Below, in pieces: positions 6,896-59,183 of a stretch of 64,000 nucleotides of DNA (positions are counted from its first letter, which is position 1; each line of letters begins with the position of its first letter). The position numbers and the translations under genes are program-made. Origin of the DNA: Candidatus Liptonbacteria bacterium (GTDB taxonomy: Bacteria; Patescibacteriota; Minisyncoccia; UBA6257; JACOXY01); NCBI GenBank assembly GCA_016182095.1, contig JACOXY010000011.1, forward strand, positions 67,794 through 131,793, read 5' to 3'. The notes beneath the pieces were generated by a model. That model saw only the letters and a list, made by a program, of their open reading frames with translations, searched no databases and was not told the DNA's origin.

Positions 6896-6952
6896 TTGCT
6901 GGGCTTAATTCAATAAATGTTTAAAAATAAACTTGGCGCGCGAAAAAATAGG

Positions 6953-7675
6953 TTATAATTTTTGGGAACGAACAATTATGTTTTGGGTAAAAAGACCTTT
7001 GCGAGAACCAGTTTCTATAAATAAGTAGAGGTTTATACACAAGACAACGGCTCGCCACAAAATAAACCTGCAAAGGGAAATTATGCCATGGGGCACCGGC
7101 CCCGCTTCCTTAAAAGTTATATTTTTAAACCCGGTCGCGCCAAGAACATGTCTCAAGCTTGAGGAAGTAAAACCAATACAGTGAGTAAAGTCGTAATAAC
7201 GATACCGCGCTCCAAAAGGACTCTCGGCGTTGGGGGTCTGGATTATTAAGACGCCCCCCTGACGCAAAGCGCCATAAATTAAATCTAGGACTTCAAAAAT
7301 TTCATCCTTTGTAAAATGCTCTATTACATCACGCGCTATTATACAATCAAATTTTTGCGATTTATCGCTTAAAAATGATTTAATGTCATCCTTACAAACT
7401 TTGACGTCCAGTTTCTTCGCCTCTTCAATAAGGCGCAGATCTTGGTCAATACCACGGGCATTATAAAACCCGATTAATTTTAACCAAAAAAGGAGTTCGC
7501 CGTTACCGCATCCCAAATCAAGGATGGATGCGTTTTTATCAATCGGTAAAAATCTGCTATAATAGCTATTCCAAACAGGAAATTGTTTTTTAATATTCTC
7601 CTTGCTTAAATCGCCTCTTTCAATCTTTAAATAGTGCTCAAAATATGCTTGGTAAGCTCGCTCGCGCCAATTCAT
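6953..7675 (-). CDS. class I SAM-dependent methyltransferase
   Basis: Motif I ILDLGCGNGELL; acidic motif II (IIARDVIEH). Confidence 0.6.
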   Translation of the reverse strand: MNWRERAYQAYFEHYLKIERGDLSKENIKKQFPVWNSYYSRFLPIDKNASILDLGCGNGELLFWLKLIGFYNARGIDQDLRLIEEAKKLDVKVCKDDIKSFLSDKSQKFDCIIARDVIEHFTKDEIFEVLDLIYGALRQGGVLIIQTPNAESPFGARYRYYDFTHCIGFTSSSLRHVLGATGFKNITFKEAGPVPHGIISLCRFILWRAVVLCINLYLFIETGSRKGLFTQNIIVRSQKL

Positions 7676-7723
7676 AAAATTTTATTTGCTTTAGATTTTT
7701 GTCTATATTAGTATGAGGTTATT

Positions 7724-8845
7724 ATGCCCGAGAAAAAACTTACAGTGGCGTATTTCGGGAATTATGATCCCCTTTATACCCGAGTCAGAACCGTTATTAA
7801 AGGTTTACGGAAAAATAACGTAAAAGTTATAGAATGCCGAAGCAATCACCGAAACCGCTTAAGACGGCTCGCGATTCTTGCTGTTAATTACTTTAAAATA
7901 CAAGGCAAGATAGACGCGATTCTAGTTTCCGAAGGTGGCCAGTCTTACGTCCCACTCGCCAAAATACTATCTTTTCTTACGCGAAAACCTCTTATATTTG
8001 ACGCGTTTATTTCATACTACCACGTTAAGGCAATTGACACGAGTGATGTGCGCCCCGATTCTATAAAGGGGAGATTTTTTTACTATCGCGATAAAATAAG
8101 CTGTCTTTTGGCGGATAAAGTGCTCTTGGATACCAAAGAGCACGCGGAGTATTTTTGCAAAGAATTCGGCTTGCCGCGGTCAAAATTTGAAATAGTACCC
8201 GTTGGGTCAGATGAAGATTTTTTTTATCCGGAGAAAAGCTGGGCTCGCAAAAAGGGCGGGGACTTTGTCGTTTTCCTTGTTTCAAGTTACTACCCTCTCC
8301 ACGGCGTAGATTATGTAGTCCGAGCCGCTAAAATTCTTGAAAAATACAGCGATATAAAATTTTTAATTATTGGGGACGGGATAACAAAACAAAAAGTTCT
8401 TTCATTAGCCAACGACCTGAACGTAAAAAATATTATTTTTAGAGGATCGGTTTACCCCGACGTCTTGCCTGATTTTATGGCAAGCGCCGATGTCTGCCTG
8501 GGACAATTCGGGGGCACGGAACAGGGGCACATGGTAGTGCCGGCAAAAGTATATGATGCTTTGGCCATGGCAAAACCAGTCATAACCGGAAACGGCATGG
8601 CGGCGAAAACAATGTTTAAGCATCAAGAACACCTCTTGTTTTGCCCTTTTGCTGACGCAGAAACCATTGCCAACACCATTGTGGCGCTAAAGACCGATAA
8701 GGAACTGCGGGACCAGTTAGCCGCGAATGGACATAAGTTTTTTAAAGAAAACTTTAATTTGCAAAAAGTAGGCAGCATGGTGCGTGCCATAATAGAAAAA
8801 CAGATTGACCGTAGCAAGGCGACCTATTCGCACAATAACTCATAG
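7724..8845 (+). CDS. glycosyltransferase family 4 (GT-B)
   Basis: GT4-like C-terminal domain, E..LLFCPFADAE... Confidence 0.55.
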   Translation: MPEKKLTVAYFGNYDPLYTRVRTVIKGLRKNNVKVIECRSNHRNRLRRLAILAVNYFKIQGKIDAILVSEGGQSYVPLAKILSFLTRKPLIFDAFISYYHVKAIDTSDVRPDSIKGRFFYYRDKISCLLADKVLLDTKEHAEYFCKEFGLPRSKFEIVPVGSDEDFFYPEKSWARKKGGDFVVFLVSSYYPLHGVDYVVRAAKILEKYSDIKFLIIGDGITKQKVLSLANDLNVKNIIFRGSVYPDVLPDFMASADVCLGQFGGTEQGHMVVPAKVYDALAMAKPVITGNGMAAKTMFKHQEHLLFCPFADAETIANTIVALKTDKELRDQLAANGHKFFKENFNLQKVGSMVRAIIEKQIDRSKATYSHNNS

Positions 8846-33363: not shown

Positions 33364-34801
33364 GCACAGAGATTACTTTGTCAATCTCCGCTTTTGTCGT
33401 GTATTTCCCGAGCGTAAACCGTACGCTTTGTTTGGCGCGTTCTTTGGAGTGTCCAAGCGCCTCTATCACATAAGAGGGTGTGAGCGCACGGGCGCGACAA
33501 GCCGACCCCGAAGAAGCCGCGATGCCTGCTAAATCAAGTTTGGTTAGAAAAAATTGGGATTCAATGCCTGGGAGATAGACATTAAGAAAATTGGGGAGCC
33601 GTTGTAACGTTCTGGCCGTTCTATCGCTTCGCTCGTTCAAGCCGTTTTTCGCTATAGCATTTAGAACGCCCAGAACGTCTGCGCCGTTGATTTCCGCATT
33701 CAGATAAATCTTTTTGATGCCCTGCCATAAATTTTCACGCAGTTTGGCGATGCGGACAGATTCCTTTTCGCGATTTTTTTGTGCGAGTTCAACAGCCTTA
33801 GCAAAGCCGACAACGAACGGAACGTTTTCGGTGCCACTGCGCAATCCAAACTCTTGGCCACCACCAGTTATGATGGGGTGTGGGGTATGGAGTATAGGGT
33901 TTAGTTTTTTTTCTGCACTATACCCTAAACCCTGGACCCCAGACCCTTGGCGCGCATATAGCGCGCCAATGCCTTTCGGTCCATAGATTTTGTGAGCCGA
34001 GATTGTCATTAAGTCCACTCCCAATTTCCCCACATCACAATCTAAATACTGCAGAGCCTGTGCCGCATCAGTATGAAACATCGGATATGTAGAAGAAAAA
34101 CTTGTTTCTAAGAAAAGTGTCTCGGAGCCTGAGCGGGCATGGTTGCCGCTTTTAGTGGCAGAGCGAGGGCGAGAGTCAAGCGGGTGAGCGATCGGCTGGG
34201 CGAGCGAAACCCCGTCTTTTCGTGAAACAAGTTTTTCTTCTCTGAACTTCCTGATTATCTCGGCAATTTGCGCAACAGGCTCTACTGTTCCAACCTCATT
34301 ATTCGCATACATAACCGAAACCAAAACAGTACGCTCGTTAAGCGCCGCTTCAAGTTTTTCCAAATTAACAATTCCGCTTTTGTCTACTGGAATATAAACA
34401 ACTTCAACCCCCTCACGTTCCAAATCCCGCGCGGTTTCCAAAACAGATTCATGCTCTATTCCCGAAACCACAATCCTGGGGTGTGGGGTGTGGGGTGTGG
34501 GGTGTGGTTTTTTGTTTCCGCTATACCCCATACCCGATACCCTATACCCTTTGGCAATTCCCCGAATTGCCAAATTATTCGCTTCTGTTGCGGATCCCGT
34601 AAAAATAATTTCATTAAAGTTAGCGCCAATCGCCTTGGCAATTGTTTCCCGCGACTCATCAAGCGCCGACATAGCTGCTTGCCCAAAAGAATGCAGAGAT
34701 CCCGTGTTCCCAAATTTCAATCCAAAATACGGCTCCATTGCTTTCTTCACAACCGGATCAATTGGAGTTGTAGAGGCGTAGTCAAGGTAGATGCGCTTCA
34801 T
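33341..34801 (-). CDS. iscS: cysteine desulfurase (IscS/NifS-like) carrying two in-frame insertions
   Basis: YLDYASTTP; SAHKIYGPKG PLP lysine; C-terminal SSGSAC. The tracked ORF carries an N-terminal extension; the likely start is MKRIYLDYAS at 34801. Confidence 0.8.
   Translation of the reverse strand: MKRIYLDYASTTPIDPVVKKAMEPYFGLKFGNTGSLHSFGQAAMSALDESRETIAKAIGANFNEIIFTGSATEANNLAIRGIAKGYRVSGMGYSGNKKPHPTPHTPHPRIVVSGIEHESVLETARDLEREGVEVVYIPVDKSGIVNLEKLEAALNERTVLVSVMYANNEVGTVEPVAQIAEIIRKFREEKLVSRKDGVSLAQPIAHPLDSRPRSATKSGNHARSGSETLFLETSFSSTYPMFHTDAAQALQYLDCDVGKLGVDLMTISAHKIYGPKGIGALYARQGSGVQGLGYSAEKKLNPILHTPHPIITGGGQEFGLRSGTENVPFVVGFAKAVELAQKNREKESVRIAKLRENLWQGIKKIYLNAEINGADVLGVLNAIAKNGLNERSDRTARTLQRLPNFLNVYLPGIESQFFLTKLDLAGIAASSGSACRARALTPSYVIEALGHSKERAKQSVRFTLGKYTTKAEIDKVISVLDTFQRQ
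33872..33950. repeat. G-rich insertion element #1, in-frame in iscS
   Basis: ggggtgtggggtatggagtatagggtttag...ctataccctaaaccctggaccccagaccc encodes GSGVQGLGYSAEKKLNPILHTPHP between the conserved ALYARQ and IITGGGQE. Confidence 0.6.
34476..34553. repeat. G-rich insertion element #2, in-frame in iscS
   Basis: (ggggtgt)x4 then a T-loop then ataccccatacccgataccctataccc; encodes VSGMGYSGNKKPHPTPHTPHP. Confidence 0.6.
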
Positions 34802-36410: not shown

Positions 36411-36513
36411 TATCCATAGACTAAAACAAACTGGGCAAATTTGCAACCAATTTGAGAATGAATAAAAAAAGAAGCCCGCCCAAGTTCTGTTTTGCAAAAC
36501 TCGGGCGGGCGAA

Positions 36514-36586
36514 TAGGCCCTGGGGGATTTGAACCACCGTCGGTCGCTTATAAGGCGACTGCTCTAACCAATTGAGCTAAGGGCCC
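36514..36586 (-). tRNA. tRNA with anticodon UAU (Ile2-type)
   Basis: Manual fold: acceptor GGGCCCT/AGGGCCT; D arm GCTC..GAGC; anticodon stem GTCGC/GCGAC with loop CTTATAA; T arm GGTGG-TTCAAAT-CCCCC. Confidence 0.55.
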
Positions 36587-36589
36587 AAA

Positions 36590-36663
36590 TAGCGCCGGCG
36601 GGATTTGAACCCACGGTCTCCGGCTTGAAAGGCCGGTGTCCTAGACCACTAGACGATGGCGCC
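36590..36663 (-). tRNA. tRNA-Glu (UUC)
   Basis: Anticodon stem CCGGC/GCCGG with loop CTTTCAA; T loop TTCAAAT. Confidence 0.7.
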
Positions 36664-36733
36664 GCAAACAGAAAGATGGCAATCGGGCTTGAACCGATGA
36701 CCCCCTGCTTATCCCTCACTTATGCGCTTAAAA
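36664..36733 (-). other. tRNA 3'-half-like fragment (perfect T arm plus acceptor 3' strand, no 5' half)
   Basis: ATCGG-TTCAAGC-CCGAT followed by TGCCATC. Confidence 0.4.
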
Positions 36734-36806
36734 AGCCAGAGGAGGGGCTTGAACCCTCGACCACTCGATTACAAATCGAGTACTCTACCAACTGAGCTAC
36801 TCTGGC
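36734..36806 (-). tRNA. tRNA-Thr (UGU)
   Basis: Acceptor GCCAGAG/CTCTGGC; anticodon stem CTCGA/TCGAG with loop TTTGTAA; T arm GAGGG-TTCAAGC-CCCTC. Confidence 0.7.
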
Positions 36807-36850
36807 ATTAGTGAGGGACTAGGCGCTCTACCGACTGAGCTATGCCAGCA
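36807..36850 (-). other. tRNA 5'-half-like fragment (acceptor plus D arm)
   Basis: GCTGGCA-TA-GCTC-AGTCGGTA-GAGC; its acceptor pairs 6/7 with the 3' fragment at 36664-36733. Confidence 0.4.
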
Positions 36851-36923
36851 TACCCCCGAGAGGATTTGAACCCCTGACTCCGCGGGTAGAAACCGCGAGC
36901 TCTGTCCACTGAGCTACGGGGGC
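36851..36923 (-). tRNA. tRNA-Arg (UCU)
   Basis: Acceptor GCCCCCG; anticodon stem CGCGG/CCGCG with loop TTTCTAC; T arm AGGGG-TTCAAAT-CCTCT. Confidence 0.65.
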
Positions 36924-37093
36924 AGAACCAAAAAAAGAGTGAATGCGGGAGGAGGGATTTGCCCACAACTCTCACTTCGCCGTCGCGAAGTTCGGTCGCG
37001 GGCCCGCCTCGCGATCGCGCGTGCTCGCGCGATAAGCTCCGGCATTCAAATCCCGCCCGCAGGCAAAGAAGTTTGCCTGCTCGGAAAAAGAAA

Positions 37094-37167
37094 TGCGGGA
37101 GGAGGGATTTGAACCCTCAAAATCAGGCTTTTAAGGCCAGCACGTATGCCAATTCCGTCACTCCCGC
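37094..37167 (-). tRNA. type-I tRNA with anticodon UAA (Leu-like), atypical
   Basis: Acceptor GCGGGAG/CTCCCGC; T arm GAGGG-TTCAAAT-CCCTC; anticodon loop CTTAAAA; only a 5-nt variable region and a 3-bp D stem. Confidence 0.45.
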
Positions 37168-37183
37168 AAAGTCACTCGCCCTC

Positions 37184-37460
37184 AGGAGTGTGAGATATGA
37201 ACATAAATCAAATTTAGAAGCCAAAAAATGAGGTGATTTCAAGGCACGACGACGAAATTGTATTCAGAGAATACATTGAGGAGGAGTAACGAAGAAAATC
37301 AGCCATTTTTTGGCTTCCCCTCGGGGGCGGGCGAATTTCCTAAATCTGCCTCGTTCATCGTCGGAGCTGTACTCTTTGAGTACTAATCTCCTCCTCGCGC
37401 CTCACATATTTAGTAAATTCGCTCCGCTAAATTGATTTTGTTCGTATCTCACACTCCTAT
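37184..37460. repeat. inverted-repeat-bounded element of about 275 bp (MITE-like or structured RNA)
   Basis: aggagtgtgagatatgaacataaatcaa (37184-37212) versus the reverse complement of attgattttgttcgtatctcacactcct (37430-37460); interior has several nested complementary blocks. Confidence 0.45.
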
Positions 37461-46714: not shown

Positions 46715-46764
46715 GGACAAAACATAAAAGTTCTCCAAAAGTTTCGCAACCAGTATCAGGCCGG
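46715..46764. repeat. left copy of a ~50-bp direct repeat (duplicate of the folD 3' end)
   Basis: aaaagttctccaaaagtttcgcaaccagtatcaggccggtaccgtgggg. Confidence 0.6.
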
Positions 46765-46776
46765 TACCGTGGGGAA

Positions 46777-47281: not shown

Positions 47282-48130
47282 CTATTTTGCAATTTCGCAA
47301 AGTTTATAAAAGTTCTCCAAAAGTTTCGCAACCAGTATCGGGCCGGTACCGTGAGGGGTGGGAGTATAGGAAATAGGGTTTAGGCTAAAGCCCGATGGGC
47401 TCGCCCGTCTAGGGGTTTGGGGTTTAGGGTCTAGTGAAGAAGAATCAAAGTCACCTTTGCCGTTGTCGTAGCCAAAGTCAATAACGACCGCTTCTTCGTT
47501 CAACATGTCTGGCTTTATAATACCGGCTTTACCAACACCAGAAATTACGAGGTTGGCTTCCTTTAAGAGCAAGAAGTCGCTTCCTTCGTCAAAGAGAATA
47601 ATTTCTTTCGCTTTGCCTTGAAGCCACACCGATATCGGTTTCCCGACCAAAAACCCCAAGCCGACTACTGCAACCTTGCTAGTTGATAGGGTATAGCCAA
47701 TAACCAATAGTATATCCTGTAAAGTACCGACGGCAGGGGGCAAAACCGGATTCCGGCCGGTATAAAACGCTCCGAGCGTGCGCTCGCCCAAAACATCCAC
47801 GTCCTTCTCGCGCGGGATAACATTTAAAATATAGTGCTTCTTCACGTGCTCCGGAAGCGGGAGCTGAACTATTATCCCCCCGCAAGTCCTATGATTTGCG
47901 ATTTTTAAAACTTCTTCGCGTAATTCGTCATTCTTTACTGTTTCCGGGAACTCATACAAACGGAAGTCTATGCCCAGCTCTTTAGCGGCTTTTTCTTTTT
48001 GTTTTATAAAACTCTTTGATGCCTCATCGTCGTCAACAAGCACGGCAGCCAAAAAATTTTTGGGTTTGGGCTGTGCCTTCAGTTTTTCTAAAATATTTTC
48101 TGCTATCTGTTTTCCATTTATAATTGCCAT
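47282..48130 (-). CDS. folD: bifunctional methylene-THF dehydrogenase/cyclohydrolase FolD carrying an in-frame insertion
   Basis: N-terminus MAIINGKQIAE...; C-terminal TPTPHGTGPILVAKLL matches the TPVPGGVGPMT consensus; the 47308-47357 repeat and the 47355-47432 insertion both lie inside the CDS. Confidence 0.75.
   Translation of the reverse strand: MAIINGKQIAENILEKLKAQPKPKNFLAAVLVDDDEASKSFIKQKEKAAKELGIDFRLYEFPETVKNDELREEVLKIANHRTCGGIIVQLPLPEHVKKHYILNVIPREKDVDVLGERTLGAFYTGRNPVLPPAVGTLQDILLVIGYTLSTSKVAVVGLGFLVGKPISVWLQGKAKEIILFDEGSDFLLLKEANLVISGVGKAGIIKPDMLNEEAVVIDFGYDNGKGDFDSSSLDPKPQTPRRASPSGFSLNPISYTPTPHGTGPILVAKLLENFYKLCEIAK
47355..47432. repeat. G-rich insertion element, in-frame in folD
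   Basis: ggggtgggagtataggaaatagggtttagg...ggggtttggggtttagggtctag encodes LDPKPQTPRRASPSGFSLNPISY. Confidence 0.55.
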
Positions 48131-48817: not shown

Positions 48818-48850
48818 TTTGATTTATGTTCGTATCTCACACTCCTATAT
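48818..48850. repeat. third copy of the ttcgtatctcacactcctat repeat
   Basis: tttgatttatgttcgtatctcacactcctatat. Confidence 0.5.
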
Positions 48851-55267: not shown

Positions 55268-55340
55268 AAAATCAGCTTTATAAAGCTGATTTTATGTTGG
55301 GCATACCGCCCAAAGTTGCCTGCACTAAACTAGCCGAAGT

Positions 55341-55411
55341 GTGCCGCAGGGCAGAATCGAACTGCCTTCAATCGCTCTTCAGGCGAGTGCTTTACCATTA
55401 AGCTACTGCGG
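55341..55411 (-). tRNA. tRNA-Phe (GAA)
   Basis: Acceptor GCCGCAG/CTGCGGC; anticodon loop CTGAAGA; T arm GGCAG-TTCGATT-CTGCC. Confidence 0.7.
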
Positions 55412-55541: not shown

Positions 55542-56363
55542 ATGAAGTCATTGACAACGCTAATCTGCGCAATGGTTATCATGGTTTTCGCAAGTAGCGC
55601 TTCCGCCTACTACGAGTCAGAACAGTGCCACGGTGATTTTGAAGTTCTTTTGAAGCAGGGGCTCGACAGGGTGGCGTGGATTGAACCAAAAGAACTTTTC
55701 GCGCTTAAAACAGAAATCCAGAAAATCAGCACTGTTGAGGGAAGTCGTACGGCGATAGTTTTGTATGGCAAAACCATTCCGGCGGCTTATCTAATTGGAT
55801 GGAATGTGTTAAGCGGCGAAGAACCGAATAAATATGTGACACCAGAAGCTCGGGCTGTGTTCCAAAAAACAGCTTATCAAAAAATTACGCGCGTCATTTG
55901 TCCGCAACACCGAACGGGTTGGGATTTGAAGGGGTTATCTTCCACAATACAAGAGGTAGCTTTTTGGTGGGGACTCTATCAAGATACGGAATATTCTCTT
56001 GCCTTTAACAAAGCCCTAAAGAAAAGATTTGACGAGTTGTGGAACCCGTTTTTCAAAAGCTATAGTGAAGAGAAAAAGCAATGGCCATACACAATAGCGA
56101 ACTCATTGGGTGTATATACTGACACTACTTTTACAGTCTTAAAAATTTCCATTTACATCAACGTTGCCCTTTGGGATGGCGATGGCGCAACTTATGAGCC
56201 GACCTTCACCGAACTTCAGGGGCGCAAAACTTATCTAAAAGAATTTCATTTTACGAAAAATATCTCTGGCGACAGAAGAAAATTAAGAGAAGCGCTTGAC
56301 GAGTTGGGCGCGAAATACGCCGATACAATTTTTGAAACTTTCAAAAACGAACTTACAAAATAA
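55542..56363 (+). CDS. hypothetical secreted protein
   Basis: Signal peptide ending ASSASA. Confidence 0.35.
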   Translation: MKSLTTLICAMVIMVFASSASAYYESEQCHGDFEVLLKQGLDRVAWIEPKELFALKTEIQKISTVEGSRTAIVLYGKTIPAAYLIGWNVLSGEEPNKYVTPEARAVFQKTAYQKITRVICPQHRTGWDLKGLSSTIQEVAFWWGLYQDTEYSLAFNKALKKRFDELWNPFFKSYSEEKKQWPYTIANSLGVYTDTTFTVLKISIYINVALWDGDGATYEPTFTELQGRKTYLKEFHFTKNISGDRRKLREALDELGAKYADTIFETFKNELTK

Positions 56364-56389
56364 GCGCTCCAGCGCTTATTTTTTGACTT

Positions 56390-57572
56390 GTGTCCAGTAT
56401 TCTTGAAATAGTGCGAACCGTTTTCGCCGCCTGCGGCGGCGAGGAAAGCCCCCCGCGAAAAATCCGAAAGGCAGCGGAGCCGCACCGATGACAATTTCAA
56501 GTTTTTCTTTGGCGGCAATTTAATTATGAATTTAATTCAATTAAAAATCAAACATAATAAAAAGAAAAAACCCGCTAGGTCCGAAGACATAGCGGGAAGC
56601 AGTTGGTCTGCTCAGTCCTTGCTACTTGGCACCGTTCAAGCTGTGCCGGAGTTCACGCACCCACTCGCTTCTCTCGCGAGCACGCCGCACTTCGGCGTTG
56701 TGCTCCTTGGTGTGGTATGCAATGTCTCGCCGTGCGTTCTTGACGAGCTGGGTACGGTACTGCTTGCCCGAGAGCCGCTGTGGCATCGTAGGTGTGTGCA
56801 GGCAGTCGAACTCGACGCTTTCCGCGAGCTGATCGATCATGAAGCTCTTGAGGCCTTCGTGATCTTTGGTGGGCGGAACCCACTTTCCCGCTTGCTTGAG
56901 CATGGCGATGTAAGCTCGCCCGGTCTTCTCGTTCTTCTCGCCATACTTCTTGCTCGAGCGAACTTCGTCATCGAAGGCCTTCTTGGCCTCTCTCTCCGCC
57001 CGTGCGTTACTCCACTTTTCGACTTCGGCGAGACGCTTCTTGGCCGTCTCGATTGCGTCGAGGTGGTAGTTGCTGGGTCGGAATTCATCGGGGATTGGCG
57101 CATCGAGCGAATCGTCGCGCATCTCGATGAGAGCGCCGAAGGCGCGAGCGCACTTCATGGCGAACTCCGAGAACGTTACCTGCTTCCCGTCGTTCAGGTC
57201 TGCTGTGTATCCTGTCGGCATCGGTTTCTCCTTTCCTTTCGGATGTTTGGGTTTTCAATGGGAAAACGGCCTTTTGCCGCTATCCCGAACCATTATTCCT
57301 GCTACAAGTATAGCAATATTTATATGGAATGTCAAGAGCAAACAAAAAATCAGCATTTCTGCTGTTTTTCTGGTTTAAATCTTATGTATTTTACGATTAA
57401 AAATTTTTCCGTTCCCCAAATTCAAAATATGGTTCGCGCCGATATTTTTCTTCGGGTTCTTCTGCGGTTTTTATCGGTGTGGCTCCACCGCCTTTCGGAT
57501 TTTTCGCGGGGGGCTTTCCTCGCCGCCGCAGGCGGCGAAAACGGTTCGCACTATTTCAAGAATACTGGACAC
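56390..57572. mobile_element. GC-rich element of about 1.2 kb bounded by ~85-100 bp terminal inverted repeats
   Basis: Left TIR gtgtccagtattcttgaaatagtgcgaaccgttttcgccgcctgcggcggcgaggaaagccccccgcg...; right TIR is its reverse complement at 57490-57572; the interior is visibly GC-richer than the host. Confidence 0.45.
56622..57221 (-). CDS. hypothetical protein carried by the TIR element
   Basis: 199 aa, K/E/A/R-rich with normal composition; the overlapping + frame is L/R-rich antisense. Confidence 0.35.
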   Translation of the reverse strand: MPTGYTADLNDGKQVTFSEFAMKCARAFGALIEMRDDSLDAPIPDEFRPSNYHLDAIETAKKRLAEVEKWSNARAEREAKKAFDDEVRSSKKYGEKNEKTGRAYIAMLKQAGKWVPPTKDHEGLKSFMIDQLAESVEFDCLHTPTMPQRLSGKQYRTQLVKNARRDIAYHTKEHNAEVRRARERSEWVRELRHSLNGAK

Positions 57573-57576
57573 CTTA

Positions 57577-58015
57577 GGAAAAGGCAAGCTAGAGGAAGCC
57601 GCCTCGCTTCGCTCGGCGGCCATTTCGTATTGAATTTTGGGGGCAAAAACGAATTGGCGGTTTCGTTTGGGGGACGGAAAAATTTTTAATCAATTTTAGT
57701 TCAACAAAACTATGCGTTATGTAATCTATGCTCGCAAATCAACGGAAGATGACGACAGGCAAGTGCTTTCGATTGAAGCTCAACTCGTTGAGCTTTCTGA
57801 ATTTGCCGCCAAAGAAAAACTTGAAATTGTCGCCTCTTTTCAAGAGGCAAAAACTGCAAAAGAACCCGAAGAAAAACATCGGCGCGAACCATATTTTGCG
57901 AAACCGCCAATTCGTTTTTGCCCCCAAAATTCAATACGAAATGGCCGCCGAGCGAAGCGAGGCGGCTTCGAAATGGCCGCCGAGCGAAGCGAGGCGGCTT
58001 CCTCTAGCTTGCGTT
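57577..58015. mobile_element. second TIR-bounded remnant holding a truncated serine-recombinase N-terminus
   Basis: TIRs gaggaagccgcctcgcttcgctcggcggccatttcgtattgaattttgggggcaaaaacgaattggcggtttcg with its reverse complement at 57903-58015 (32-bp tandem duplication on the right). The internal ORF opens MRYVIYARKSTEDDDRQVLSIEAQ (resolvase-like) and is cut after about 55 aa. Confidence 0.45.
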
Positions 58016-58026
58016 TTTCTAAAGTG

Positions 58027-58098
58027 TCCCCTCGGAGGGAATCGAACCCCCATTAAAAGGTTAGAAACCTTCCGTTCTATCCGTTGAACTACGAGGGG
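58027..58098 (-). tRNA. second tRNA-Arg (UCU) copy
   Basis: Acceptor CCCCTCG/CGAGGGG; anticodon stem GAAGG/CCTTT with loop TTTCTAA; T arm GGGGG-TTCGATT-CCCTC. Confidence 0.5.
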
Positions 58099-58172
58099 TG
58101 GTCGGAGCGCCGAGAATCGAACTCGGACCTTATGCTCCCAAAGCATATATACTACCACTATACTACGCTCCG
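58099..58172 (-). tRNA. tRNA-Pro (UGG) with encoded CCA
   Basis: Acceptor CGGAGCG/CGCTCCG; anticodon stem TATGC/GCATA with loop TTTGGGA; ends ACCA; abuts tRNA-Arg with no spacer. Confidence 0.6.
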
Positions 58173-58328
58173 ATAATTACTAATGGGGCAGGGCATATAT
58201 ATTTCCCCGTAGCAAGCTTCGCTTTGCTTAGGGGCTACCACTATACTACAGCCAGAAACACACTTAAATTACCATAAAAACAGGCACTAAACAATCATCA
58301 TCATTAAAATACTGCCGGTAAGGCAGTA

Positions 58329-59183
58329 TTACAAAATGCTTTTCAGAAAAAGCGGGTGGTCCACTTGGATAAAGTCAATTCCGGCGGTAAGTAAAAACTT
58401 AAGAGGGATATACTGCCAGGGCGGCGGGATCACCAGAGAATCCACAAAAAATTTAACTCCGCGCTCATGCAAAAACGCAACATCGCGGTGAAGCGCGAGC
58501 GGGAAGCGAATGCTTATAATTTCCGGGTATCGCTGAAACATAGATTTAACAAGCCGAACATCGCTCCACTTCTTGATGCCCACCATCACAATCAGATCGG
58601 GATATTCTGTTTTCATGCGCGCCACTGATTTTAATTCTGCTCTGTTGTTGACATAAAAAATTACATCATTAAACGAACCAAAAATACTTATCCAGTGCGC
58701 CAAATATTCTACGGCATCACTCTTAAAATCAACCACCAGTACGGCCCTACCTTGTGTTTCGCGATATATATCAAAAAATGAAGGCAAAAGCTCCCGACTA
58801 TTTTTTAGGCGCACTCGCATAGTTTCTCCTGGGGCGAGGTCCTTTAAATTGCCGCTGTGATCGGTTGTGCGATCTAAGGAGTGATCATGGAGGCAGTAGA
58901 GAATATAGTCGCTACCATACCGAACATCAACTTCTATCACCGGAATACCGGCCCGTATCGCTTGACGCGCCGCTTCGGCTGAATTTTCCGGAACACCAAA
59001 CCCGTTGCCGCGATGCGCAACCACAAACGTTTGCCGGCATTCAGCATCACGGATACACCCGGCTATTTCTTTCGCAGTCGCCATGTTTTTTTGGTTAGAG
59101 CGAGGAAAGTAAAAAGAGCAGGCGGGGAAAAAGCATAGCAAAAAAAGCATGGCGGCGGCGCGGGGCATTATCACGCAGACCAT
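58329..59183 (-). CDS. glycerophosphodiester phosphodiesterase, secreted
   Basis: VVAHRGNGFGVPENS...IEVDVRY...LHDHSLDRTT. Confidence 0.65.
   Translation of the reverse strand: MVCVIMPRAAAMLFLLCFFPACSFYFPRSNQKNMATAKEIAGCIRDAECRQTFVVAHRGNGFGVPENSAEAARQAIRAGIPVIEVDVRYGSDYILYCLHDHSLDRTTDHSGNLKDLAPGETMRVRLKNSRELLPSFFDIYRETQGRAVLVVDFKSDAVEYLAHWISIFGSFNDVIFYVNNRAELKSVARMKTEYPDLIVMVGIKKWSDVRLVKSMFQRYPEIISIRFPLALHRDVAFLHERGVKFFVDSLVIPPPWQYIPLKFLLTAGIDFIQVDHPLFLKSIL

Follow-up and report, generated by a model that had tools for sequence, protein, structure and literature searches.

A probable serine-recombinase integrative element, preserved in decayed form at the 3' end of a tRNA-Arg gene in a Liptonbacteria genome

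What lies beside the tRNA-Arg(UCU) gene in a 64-kb stretch of a Candidatus Liptonbacteria genome, the debris of two transposons or the remains of a single element? The stretch, which we call the window, comes from a metagenome-assembled genome (MAG) of the candidate phyla radiation (CPR)/Patescibacteria. The original prediction saw in it a graveyard of two separate GC-rich elements with terminal inverted repeats, accompanied by a truncated serine recombinase, two abutting tRNA genes and a further tRNA fragment. We conclude that positions 56390 to 58029 very probably form one integrated unit, a cargo module followed by a recombinase module, inserted at the 3' end of tRNA-Arg(UCU). We are as confident that this unit is a decayed, non-autonomous copy of a compact family of Patescibacteria integrative elements driven by a large serine recombinase (LSR). 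Literature searches returned no description of the element family, which is apparently both undescribed and widespread in Patescibacteria.

The unit beside tRNA-Arg

The hexamer GTGTCC stands at both limits of the module pair (56390-56395 and 58024-58029), and its inverted copy GGACAC lies at the junction between the modules (57567-57572). The direct repeat encloses the two modules together; none surrounds the cargo module or the recombinase module alone. Because the core is present at both ends and again at the internal junction, the two segments can be read as one unit at tRNA-Arg(UCU). An identical short core in direct orientation at both ends, matching the target tRNA, is the arrangement that marks an integrated element of the LSR type. 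Independent Logan assemblies reproduce the interior of the cargo module at 100% identity together with the left junction; Logan contigs break inside the repeat. The parts of the unit and its two tRNA neighbors are as follows.

56390-56395, plus strand: left core copy GTGTCC, the left limit of the whole unit, read from the sequence; reverse complement of the tRNA-Arg 3' end GGACAC
56390-56489, plus strand: left arm of the cargo-module repeat T1, with outer arm O to ~56424, core CGCCGCC-TGCG-GCGGCG at 56425-56441 and inner arm I at 56442-56489
56490-56521, minus strand: y, an inverted copy of recombinase codons ~30-40 (block Y), 97% complementary to 57800-57831; left edge of the cargo slot
56560-56596, minus strand: predicted intrinsic terminator of the cargo gene, a hairpin CCCGCTA..TAGCGGG followed by a T-run, read from the sequence
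56622-57221, minus strand: cargo gene, 199 aa, phrog_8905 family, all-helical, of foreign composition
57307-57335, minus strand: predicted sigma-70-type promoter of the cargo gene, TTGACA, 17-nt spacer and TATACT with extended TG; 11 of 12 consensus positions
57351-57364, minus strand: small hairpin and T-run in the cassette leader, also present in a few other cassettes
57395-57472, minus strand: x-zt-zh, inverted copies of blocks X, Zt and Zh; right edge of the cargo slot
57473-57572, minus strand: right arm of T1 (I'-core-O'), core at 57521-57537, ending in GGACAC at 57567-57572, the inverted internal copy of the tRNA-end core
57573-57665, plus strand: left arm of the recombinase-module repeat T2, ~93 nt, with outer part, GC hairpin core at 57598-57620 and inner part
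57666-57711, plus strand: X and spacer, the recombinase 5' leader and ribosome-binding region
57712-57867, plus strand: first 52 recombinase codons with the YARKST catalytic-serine motif; Y at 57800-57831, the palindrome hp at 57832-57848, Zh at 57849-57867
57868-57898, plus strand: Zt, the recombinase 3' end, joined in another frame through the loss of codons 53-449
57899-58023, minus strand: right arm of T2; its GC hairpin core has a tandem duplication of 32 bp that is specific to the window
58024-58029, plus strand: right core copy GTGTCC, the right limit of the unit, equal to tRNA-Arg positions 71-73 plus CAC
58026-58098, minus strand: tRNA-Arg(UCU), the integration target (ARAGORN; Rfam, 66.9 bits), its 3' end abutting T2
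58099-58172, minus strand: tRNA-Pro(UGG) with encoded CCA (ARAGORN and Rfam), directly upstream of tRNA-Arg, a neighbor outside the element

The long inverted repeats and the abutting pair of tRNAs, both on the minus strand, were described correctly in the original prediction. In the cargo module, 56390-56494 and 57468-57572 are 95% complementary over 105 nt, and 0 of 100 shuffles gave any match. The recombinase module has one pair that is 100% complementary over 71 nt (57595-57665 and 57899-57969), a second that is 95% complementary over 61 nt (57567-57627 and 57969-58029) and, at 57937-58000, 32 bp that are duplicated exactly in tandem; for this module, too, 100 shuffles gave no match. No further copy of T1, T2, X, Y or Z was found within the window. 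Elsewhere, the arms are far from unique, and the search for further copies that had been proposed succeeded in other genomes, taken here as loci, that is, related stretches from other genomes or metagenome contigs (labeled L001 etc.). T1 is 94-98% identical in L022 and L019 (left arm, 94% to L022 3900-3999 and 97.7% to L019 7903-8031), over 75 nt the T2 of L022 matches at 100%, and 43 metagenome contigs contain the 25-nt O arm without change.

The modules also share their interiors. Three blocks of the recombinase module recur inverted in the cargo module: X (57666-57691) at 57395-57420, Y (57800-57831) at 56490-56521 and Zh-Zt (57849-57898) at 57423-57472. On the minus strand the cargo module thus runs T1 - Zh-Zt - X - promoter - ORF199 (the open reading frame [ORF] of the cargo gene) - terminator - Y - T1', and the recombinase module runs T2 - X - recN - Y - hp - Zh-Zt - T2'. 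Within x-zt-zh, X is the recombinase 5' leader, Zt its 3' end and Zh its codons 47-52, joined exactly as in the deleted recombinase gene; this block is 96% identical to L019 4139-4215 and is present in most loci. The inverted sharing of X, Y and Zh-Zt, the GTGTCC direct repeat and the Logan-confirmed junction are all features beyond those of the original prediction.

These observations bear on the view that two unrelated non-autonomous transposons, one resembling a mobile insertion cassette (MIC) and the other a miniature inverted-repeat transposable element (MITE), came to lie beside the tRNAs by chance and decayed there, with the 199-aa protein perhaps a transposition factor and any mobilization due to an unidentified transposase. 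Both segments do have long inverted repeats and no intact transposase, and this locus is the only place in the 64-kb window where the repeats occur. We nevertheless regard this view as very improbable. A single direct repeat surrounds the pair and none surrounds either module; the X, Y and Zh-Zt blocks are common to both; and the modules lie side by side in dozens of genomes without change of order or orientation, and homology between copies within one genome covers both of them. Moreover, the slot holds unrelated genes elsewhere, and homologues of the 199-aa protein occur in the accessory regions of phages as well as in CPR chromosomes that lack these repeats. What survives of the graveyard is its mobile character.

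The recombinase itself, predicted to be a resolvase-type enzyme cut off after about 55 codons, retains exactly 52 codons, followed by a frameshifted 3' piece. The fragment matches Pfam Resolvase (PF00239, residues 4-53, E=3.7e-6), and its residues 1-52 are 98% identical to the full-length recombinase of L022. After codon 52 the frameshifted piece is 100% identical to L022 recombinase residues 450-482, and the sequence across the deletion junction is GAACCCG-AAG-AAAAACATCGG. The Recombinase domain, the zinc beta-ribbon and the coiled-coil C-terminal region all went with codons 53-449, and the window copy is therefore an LSR pseudogene. What is left at 57573-58023, ~450 bp with both arms kept and the coding region lost, has the form of an internal-deletion derivative; no further copy of this module, as would suit MITE-type multiplication, is present in the window. 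In 45 of 63 loci an internal inverted repeat (AGAAATGTTGTCAT at +173, complement near +1320) stands on either side of the segment that was lost. A hairpin-spanning deletion at this repeat would be a simple route by which the same miniature could arise repeatedly, and similar recombinase miniatures are found in L020, L051, L064, L083 and L096.

The window unit amounts to L120 or L022 minus recombinase codons 53-449 and with different cargo. Against L120 it is 90-91% identical over T1 plus y and from x to codon 52, and the alignment is taken up again from Zt to the tRNA. Its T2 arms are 92-100% identical to those of the full-length elements L022, L120 and L106, and the right arm is single-copy, without the duplication, in L022 and L120. 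Full-length counterparts at tRNA-Arg(tct) were found among the metagenome contigs with a window-type T1 (L106, L118, L120 and L144). To the left of the intact element in L120, at 2270-2300, there is also a palindrome GGACAC-TTTTTCCTAAAG-GTGTCC, which appears to be a recombinase module shrunk to 12 nt between two cores, an extreme of decay.

Relatives in other Patescibacteria

When representative genomes were scanned, 260 matching stretches were confirmed, and 80 loci were retained from these. Of the 80, the recombinase ORF of 47, at 440-656 aa, is complete, and the first 52 residues of the related recombinases are 81-98% identical to the window copy. When the 66-aa N terminus was used as a query, 728 proteins were returned; the best 120 of these are all 53-116 aa long and come from many CPR lineages. 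Full-length relatives (L031 and L022) have the Resolvase, Recombinase (PF07508) and Zn_ribbon_recom (PF13408) domains, and on the basis of this set they are large serine recombinases. They are distantly related to the integrases of phages A118 and SPbeta (SprA).

Dozens of Patescibacteria genomes have the two modules in the same order and orientation. The usual order of blocks is T1-y-gene (opposite strand)-x-zt/zh-t1, then T2-X-REC...Zt-t2, where REC is the recombinase, then the tRNA (opposite strand), and an intact element measures 2.5-3.5 kb. The T2 left arm sits just upstream of the full-length recombinase ATG in many loci. An antisense tRNA starts 1300-1800 nt past this ATG in 54 of the 61 loci with enough sequence (mode, 1455 nt, in 21 loci), and the tRNAs that adjoin family members belong to 26 species. 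In 38 of 47 full-length copies the recombinase ORF continues through t2 into the tRNA. Zt, the right-hand inverted repeat and the tRNA antisense strand then supply the last ~45 codons (e.g., L031 5335-5467), so that the C terminus of the recombinase varies with the insertion site.

The tRNA-end core recurs in the family as it does in the window, directly at the left end and inverted at the internal t1/T2 junction, over 4-7 bp. Its 4 nt are identical at the left end, the internal junction and the tRNA in 24 of 27 loci, and they change with the tRNA: GCAC in many, CCAC with Val, Ala and Leu, CAGC with Gln, GAGC with Asn, GTAC with Arg(gcg) and GGAC in the window. We had considered GCACCA as a fixed part of the repeat and rejected it on account of this covariation. 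What follows the left-end core is either CA or host DNA of unrelated sequence, a pattern that fits a crossover at about C74 with CA supplied by the element. Most tRNA genes in the window have no encoded CCA, and none of the others has a T2-type trailer; the idea that the outer sequence of T2 is a native tRNA trailer was rejected on the latter ground.

Several genomes hold two or three copies at different tRNAs. In one Yanofskybacteria genome, two such copies (L052 and L063) at different tRNAs share homology all the way between the outer limits of T1 and t2, cargo excepted. This distribution also speaks against a remnant of a prophage or satellite whose serine integrase chose tRNA-Arg and whose leftover is the 199-aa gene, a reading that we consider highly unlikely. 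It would draw on the distant kinship with the A118 and SPbeta integrases, on the occurrence of the ORF family in 40 phage records and on the fact that tRNA genes are classic prophage sites. Intact members, however, measure only ~3 kb and have a single cargo gene without any phage genes, host genes or tRNAs lie right at their flanks, and a search of 2.9 million IMG/VR contigs gave a single weak recombinase relative (48% identity).

We also weighed whether the locus could be an invertible switch or an assembly artifact of a repeat-rich MAG. Inverted repeats of 100 nt can mediate inversion and mislead assemblers, and in L082, L083 and L090 the orientation of the recombinase module to the tRNA is reversed. 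The cargo module, on the other hand, has one orientation in ~46 loci and the opposite in 1, a bias on which we rejected an inversion switch. As to an artifact, left junction and interior both recur at 100% identity in the independent Logan assemblies, and the same architecture was assembled independently in dozens of genomes. Taken together, this leaves either version with very little credibility.

Cargo, integration and exchange

Family members differ most in the cargo slot. Homology between loci ends exactly at y, in a T1-y joint that was found in ~45 loci, and restarts at x-zt-zh. Four loci (L031, L069, L041 and L027) are 97-98% identical over T1 plus y and 87-89% identical in the recombinase, and their cargo is unrelated; across the 33 slots that were compared, nearly all cargo proteins are mutually unrelated. 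When 25 of them were searched against Pfam, the matches included three methyltransferases, an HD-domain protein, bPH_2, DUF218 and a PsbP-like protein, and many of the others look secreted or membrane bound and have no family match. The GC content of the cargo is often unlike that of the surrounding locus. A 27- to 29-nt block of the window's cassette leader matches cassettes in L083, L087, L064 and L074.

In the window, the cargo ORF has a GC content of 0.588 and a GC content at third codon positions (GC3) of 0.755, compared with a GC3 of 0.444 +/- 0.041 for long ORFs of the host; by this composition, a comparison that the original prediction had proposed, the ORF is foreign to its host. The 199-aa protein was correctly said to have no recognizable domain: profile searches of Pfam, NCBIfam, PADLOC and PDB returned nothing significant. 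Over its whole length (residues 1-199 on profile positions 1-214 of 215) it matches phrog_8905 (E=3.2e-38). It has 1,383 homologues of ~200 aa, all unnamed, whose conserved positions include an N-terminal MPTGYT motif. With so many homologues of the ORF, and with the repeats present in many other genomes, the condition that would have spoken against the original prediction does not hold.

The structure search that had been suggested for this protein gave fold matches and no function. An AlphaFold2 model (predicted local distance difference test score, 93) consists of long helices throughout, and its sole fold matches are uncharacterized phage proteins in BFVD (TM-score up to 0.75). Foldseek against PDB found generic coiled-coil matches only (E>0.2), so that no solved structure fits. 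Family members lie in the accessory regions of the 40 phage records; the neighborhoods in two of these phages (J5a and Dolphis) are rich in hypothetical genes and gave no functional clue. Homologues also occur in CPR chromosomes outside the element. Because those in L004, L012 and L100 are mostly without the element frame, the cargo gene is not tied to the element. A consensus terminator scan did not flag the hairpin at 56560-56596; a similar hairpin is also found 3' of the L012 homologue. In a sister population the ORF199 cassette is 99.6% identical and stands behind a hicA-like gene and a degenerate Y in place of T1. Of the two roles proposed for the protein, cargo is in keeping with its foreign GC3, and a transposition function is not in keeping with a slot that holds unrelated genes elsewhere. 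As far as its sequence tells, the 199-aa gene is a phage-type passenger with its own predicted promoter and terminator.

The T1 arms are equally informative about how cargo comes and goes. Their GC-rich palindromic core has the form CGCCGCC-NNNN-GGCGGCG. Cargo-free O-core-O' stretches lie directly upstream of T2-REC in L077 and L097, an I'-core-I joint lies between two cassettes in L032, and a short form, Y-hp-Zh, lies between cassettes in L088. It is on the strength of the empty sites and the I'-core-I joint that we divided T1 into arms. The T1 arm, which the original prediction took for a classical transposon terminal repeat, is by this division a hybrid in which outer arm O meets inner arm I at the GC-rich palindromic core. 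At least seven solo scars of ~95 nt (tRNA-core-T2outer-GCcore-O'-core) are present; they are hybrids of T2 and T1 arms that share no other homology.

Several further rearrangements were seen around family members. In L019, at 6901-8035, a tyrosine-recombinase gene adjoins a solo T1-plus-y arm, with a 12- to 17-nt remnant of the T2 outer end before the arm, and on the same contig a recombinase miniature is fused directly to tRNA-Lys. Toxin-antitoxin genes resembling hicB/hicA lie beside recombinase miniatures and cassettes in L018 (5010-5442) and L001 (1-105). In the Campbellbacteria locus L004 (4359-4464, 6718-6841 and 7395-7517; also in L008 and L010), MITE-like repeats of ~110 nt sit exactly at synteny breakpoints and adjoin a 202-aa cargo-protein homologue; identical copies of it have at least three different contexts upstream.

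We propose the following mechanism. An intact element comprises a cargo module, in which one variable gene is set in a frame of recombinase relics (Y on one side, Zh-Zt-X on the other) between T1 repeats, and a recombinase module between T2 repeats. The large serine recombinase would integrate a circular form of the whole unit at a tRNA 3' end by conservative site-specific recombination, with the crossover probably within the 4- to 7-bp common core, tRNA positions 71-74. After a crossover there, the element would have the core at either end as a direct repeat. The tRNA would remain intact, the element providing the trailing CA and the sequence downstream. In the presumed circle, t2 - core - O - GCcore - O' - core - T2 would form a palindrome of ~300 bp with the cargo at its center. 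Cargo would be gained and lost at the GC-rich palindromic cores of the repeat arms, and exchange at these cores would account for T1 arms that are outer/inner hybrids. The window recombinase would have lost codons 53-449 through deletion across the internal inverted repeat, and this copy would be mobile only with an intact recombinase in trans.

Several points weigh against this mechanism. No full-length recombinase is encoded within the 64-kb window, no circular form was found, and a search of metagenome contigs for the predicted junction of the empty tRNA-Arg site gave 0 matches. The predicted joint of the circle is the reverse complement of the internal t1-T2 junction, and short sequences therefore cannot show a circle. 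The halves of the putative attP (t2 outer arm, core and O arm) have no obvious dyad symmetry, which is unusual for sites of serine integrases. A core match of 4-7 bp exceeds the 2-bp overlap that serine recombinases strictly need. Finally, the joints at the GC cores could come from replication slippage or from short-homology recombination.

The proposed mechanism leaves the manner of cargo exchange open, and it is on this matter alone that an integron-like platform competes with it. On such a platform the serine recombinase would insert and excise circular one-gene cassettes at the GC-rich palindromic cores; O-core-O' would be the resident site, I'-core-I or Y-hp-Zh the cassette site, and hp a site of that kind. 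We entertain this possibility tentatively. All four types of joint that it predicts were found, together with T2/T1 hybrids that have no shared flanking homology. The core is duplicated on either side of the insert, unrelated cargo occupies near-identical frameworks, arrays exist in L032 and L088, the ORF199 cassette varies between populations, and cargo and recombinase are transcribed divergently, as in integrons.

The 17-nt palindrome hp (57832-57848, codons 41-46) bears on the same possibility. Its 7-bp stem is kept across 75 distinct sequences, with 98.5% of cells paired and 94 double-change cells at three pairs. In 0 of 500 shuffles did pairing or covariation reach the observed values, and slid controls were 33-53% paired. 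Some of the compensatory changes alter the protein (ASFQEA <-> ASLCEA), so that the palindrome is maintained despite an amino-acid cost. By this pattern of variation hp is under selection. In the cassettes the long I'-core-I palindrome takes the exact place of hp between Y and Zh, the two being swapped base for base. Circular permutation by a crossover at the center of hp was considered and rejected, since no half-hp is present at the Y/I' or I/Zh joints.

Against an integron-like platform, arrays are rare (~3 of 50 loci), variable DNA is limited by y and x and not by the cores, and the 4-nt center of the core is unconserved. Repeats of 7-17 nt that are rich in GC and located at stable hairpins are classic hot spots for slippage and deletion, a second type of site would be unusual for one serine recombinase, and no cassette circles were seen. 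The same data are explained if cargo is exchanged by homologous recombination over the conserved frame, as could follow natural transformation. A bolder proposal, which we regard as rather unlikely, would make the element a transposable serine analogue of the integron: a ~3-kb platform that homes to the terminal nucleotides of essentially any tRNA gene and donates the CA of the CCA end, with a one-gene slot at the center of a ~300-bp palindrome, its gene exchanged by the recombinase at GC-rich hairpin cores, hp as a recombination site and the whole as a main route of gene gain in the streamlined Patescibacteria.

Other repeats, implications and known systems

The tRNA fragment that had been reported at 58187-58252 comes down to an exact 15-nt repeat of the D-arm region of tRNA-Pro (CTACCACTATACTAC, 58152-58166 = 58235-58249), 83 nt upstream of that gene. 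ARAGORN finds no tRNA there, and Rfam (E<=10, 56300-58400) reports the two tRNAs only, with no RNA family matching the repeat arms or 58187-58252. The 15-nt repeat may be a relic of an older rearrangement of the tRNA cluster. Elsewhere in the window, a 75-nt direct repeat (33874-33948 and 34477-34551, 603 nt apart) is 77% identical, each copy with a G-rich/C-rich hairpin (TGGGGTGTGGGG...CCCCAGACCC) around a T-run, and a 51-nt direct repeat (46724-46774 and 47306-47356, 582 nt apart) is 96% identical. A 25- to 29-nt motif, TTATGTTCGTATCTCACACTCCT, occurs three times, once inverted (37184-37212, 37436-37460 and 48818-48848), and one copy adjoins the tRNA cluster at 36513-37168. The 3' flank of tRNA-Phe at 55300-55341, GGCAC/ACTTCGG, resembles the GGACAC core, perhaps as a pseudo-site, perhaps by coincidence.

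The genomes of Patescibacteria are tiny, and few mobile elements have been recognized in them. An element that lands behind any tRNA with an exchangeable gene would be a simple and general route of gene gain and loss in this mostly uncultured radiation. Large serine recombinases are sought for genome engineering, and here a short, universal target at tRNA 3' ends comes with natural att arms in dozens of variants and is directly testable; the family could supply tools for CPR genetics. For annotation, hundreds of "recombinase family protein" fragments (55-115 aa) in CPR MAGs are miniatures of the element and not random pseudogenes, and contig breaks at ~1 kb around such cargo genes are due to the element's repeats.

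Among known systems, the IS607 family is defined by a small serine recombinase whose DNA-binding domain is N-terminal and by the lack of terminal inverted repeats. The window recombinase has its catalytic domain at the N terminus, its full-length relatives measure 490-550 aa and have LSR domains, and the inverted repeats are long. The window's recombinase module is like a MITE in being an internal-deletion miniature with both repeat arms, and the cargo module is like a MIC in holding a passenger gene between inverted repeats without a transposase. Unlike in MITEs and MICs, no DDE transposase is involved, no target-site duplication surrounds either module, the repeats are hybrids of recombination-site arms, and the two modules are one unit.

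In the staphylococcal cassette chromosome (SCC), large serine recombinases (Ccr) integrate cargo at the 3' end of a housekeeping gene and leave the gene undisrupted. Cassettes without a recombinase stand beside or in place of autonomous ones, and arrays and scars accumulate at the site. SCC is 20-60 kb long, has one target gene (rlmH) and has direct repeats without 100-nt hairpin arms. In lifestyle SCC/Ccr comes closest to the Patescibacteria element, whose cassettes are single genes.

The closest ecological analogue is the tycheposon. Tycheposons of Prochlorococcus are small, cargo-carrying integrative elements that seed variable DNA beside tRNA genes in streamlined genomes and leave degenerate remnants and fragmented integrases there; of their recombinases, 474 of 501 are of the tyrosine type, each specific to a single tRNA, and the direct repeats are parts of tRNAs tens of nucleotides long (bioRxiv 10.1101/2020.12.28.424599). 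The Patescibacteria element instead has a serine enzyme, a 4- to 7-bp core, 26 tRNA species and inverted-repeat arms, and the window element has neither a tRNA-specific integrase nor partial-tRNA repeats of the tycheposon kind.

Like integrons, the element has a recombinase beside a candidate resident site, one-gene cassettes divergent from the recombinase, putative palindromic cassette boundaries that are conserved in structure, and empty platforms as well as arrays. The analogues of attI and cassette sites would be the empty O-core-O' sites, the I'-core-I and Y-hp-Zh joints and the covarying palindrome. The enzyme is of the serine type rather than a tyrosine IntI, and it is the sole recombinase of the unit; cassettes have their own promoters and arrays are rare. 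The whole Patescibacteria platform is itself mobile and targets tRNAs, and site-specific exchange of cassettes is only a candidate.

By mechanism the family stands nearest to LSR elements. Tn4451 and Tn5397 (TnpX/TndX), together with multi-targeting LSRs, use a serine recombinase as a transposase with many targets and, like the Patescibacteria element, have inverted-repeat ends and hence a palindromic circle joint. TnpX excises its element as a circle, and the same route is expected for the Patescibacteria element. Multi-targeting LSRs (Durrant et al. 2022) commonly carry DUF4368 (PMC10083194), which the Patescibacteria recombinase does not have. In place of their AT-rich pseudo-sites, the targets here are tRNA 3' ends, a single structural class, and neither they nor Tn4451/Tn5397 have a palindrome-centered cargo slot. 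LSR elements and phage integrases (A118 Int, SPbeta SprA, Bxb1 and phiC31) have the same enzyme class and domain order, with a distant match to A118 and SprA. Their short common core likewise becomes a direct repeat at attL and attR, with no target duplication beyond the core. Unlike elements with those integrases, the Patescibacteria element is tiny (a recombinase plus one gene) and multi-copy within a genome, its targets are the terminal nucleotides of many tRNA genes and not a single specific site, long inverted repeats duplicate both of its att arms internally, and its recombinase ORF extends across the right repeat into the antisense tRNA. LSR integrative elements and transposons are thus the closest relatives by mechanism, and the family is set apart from them, and from SCC and tycheposons as well, by its size, its tRNA-end targets, its nested inverted repeats and its one-gene slot.

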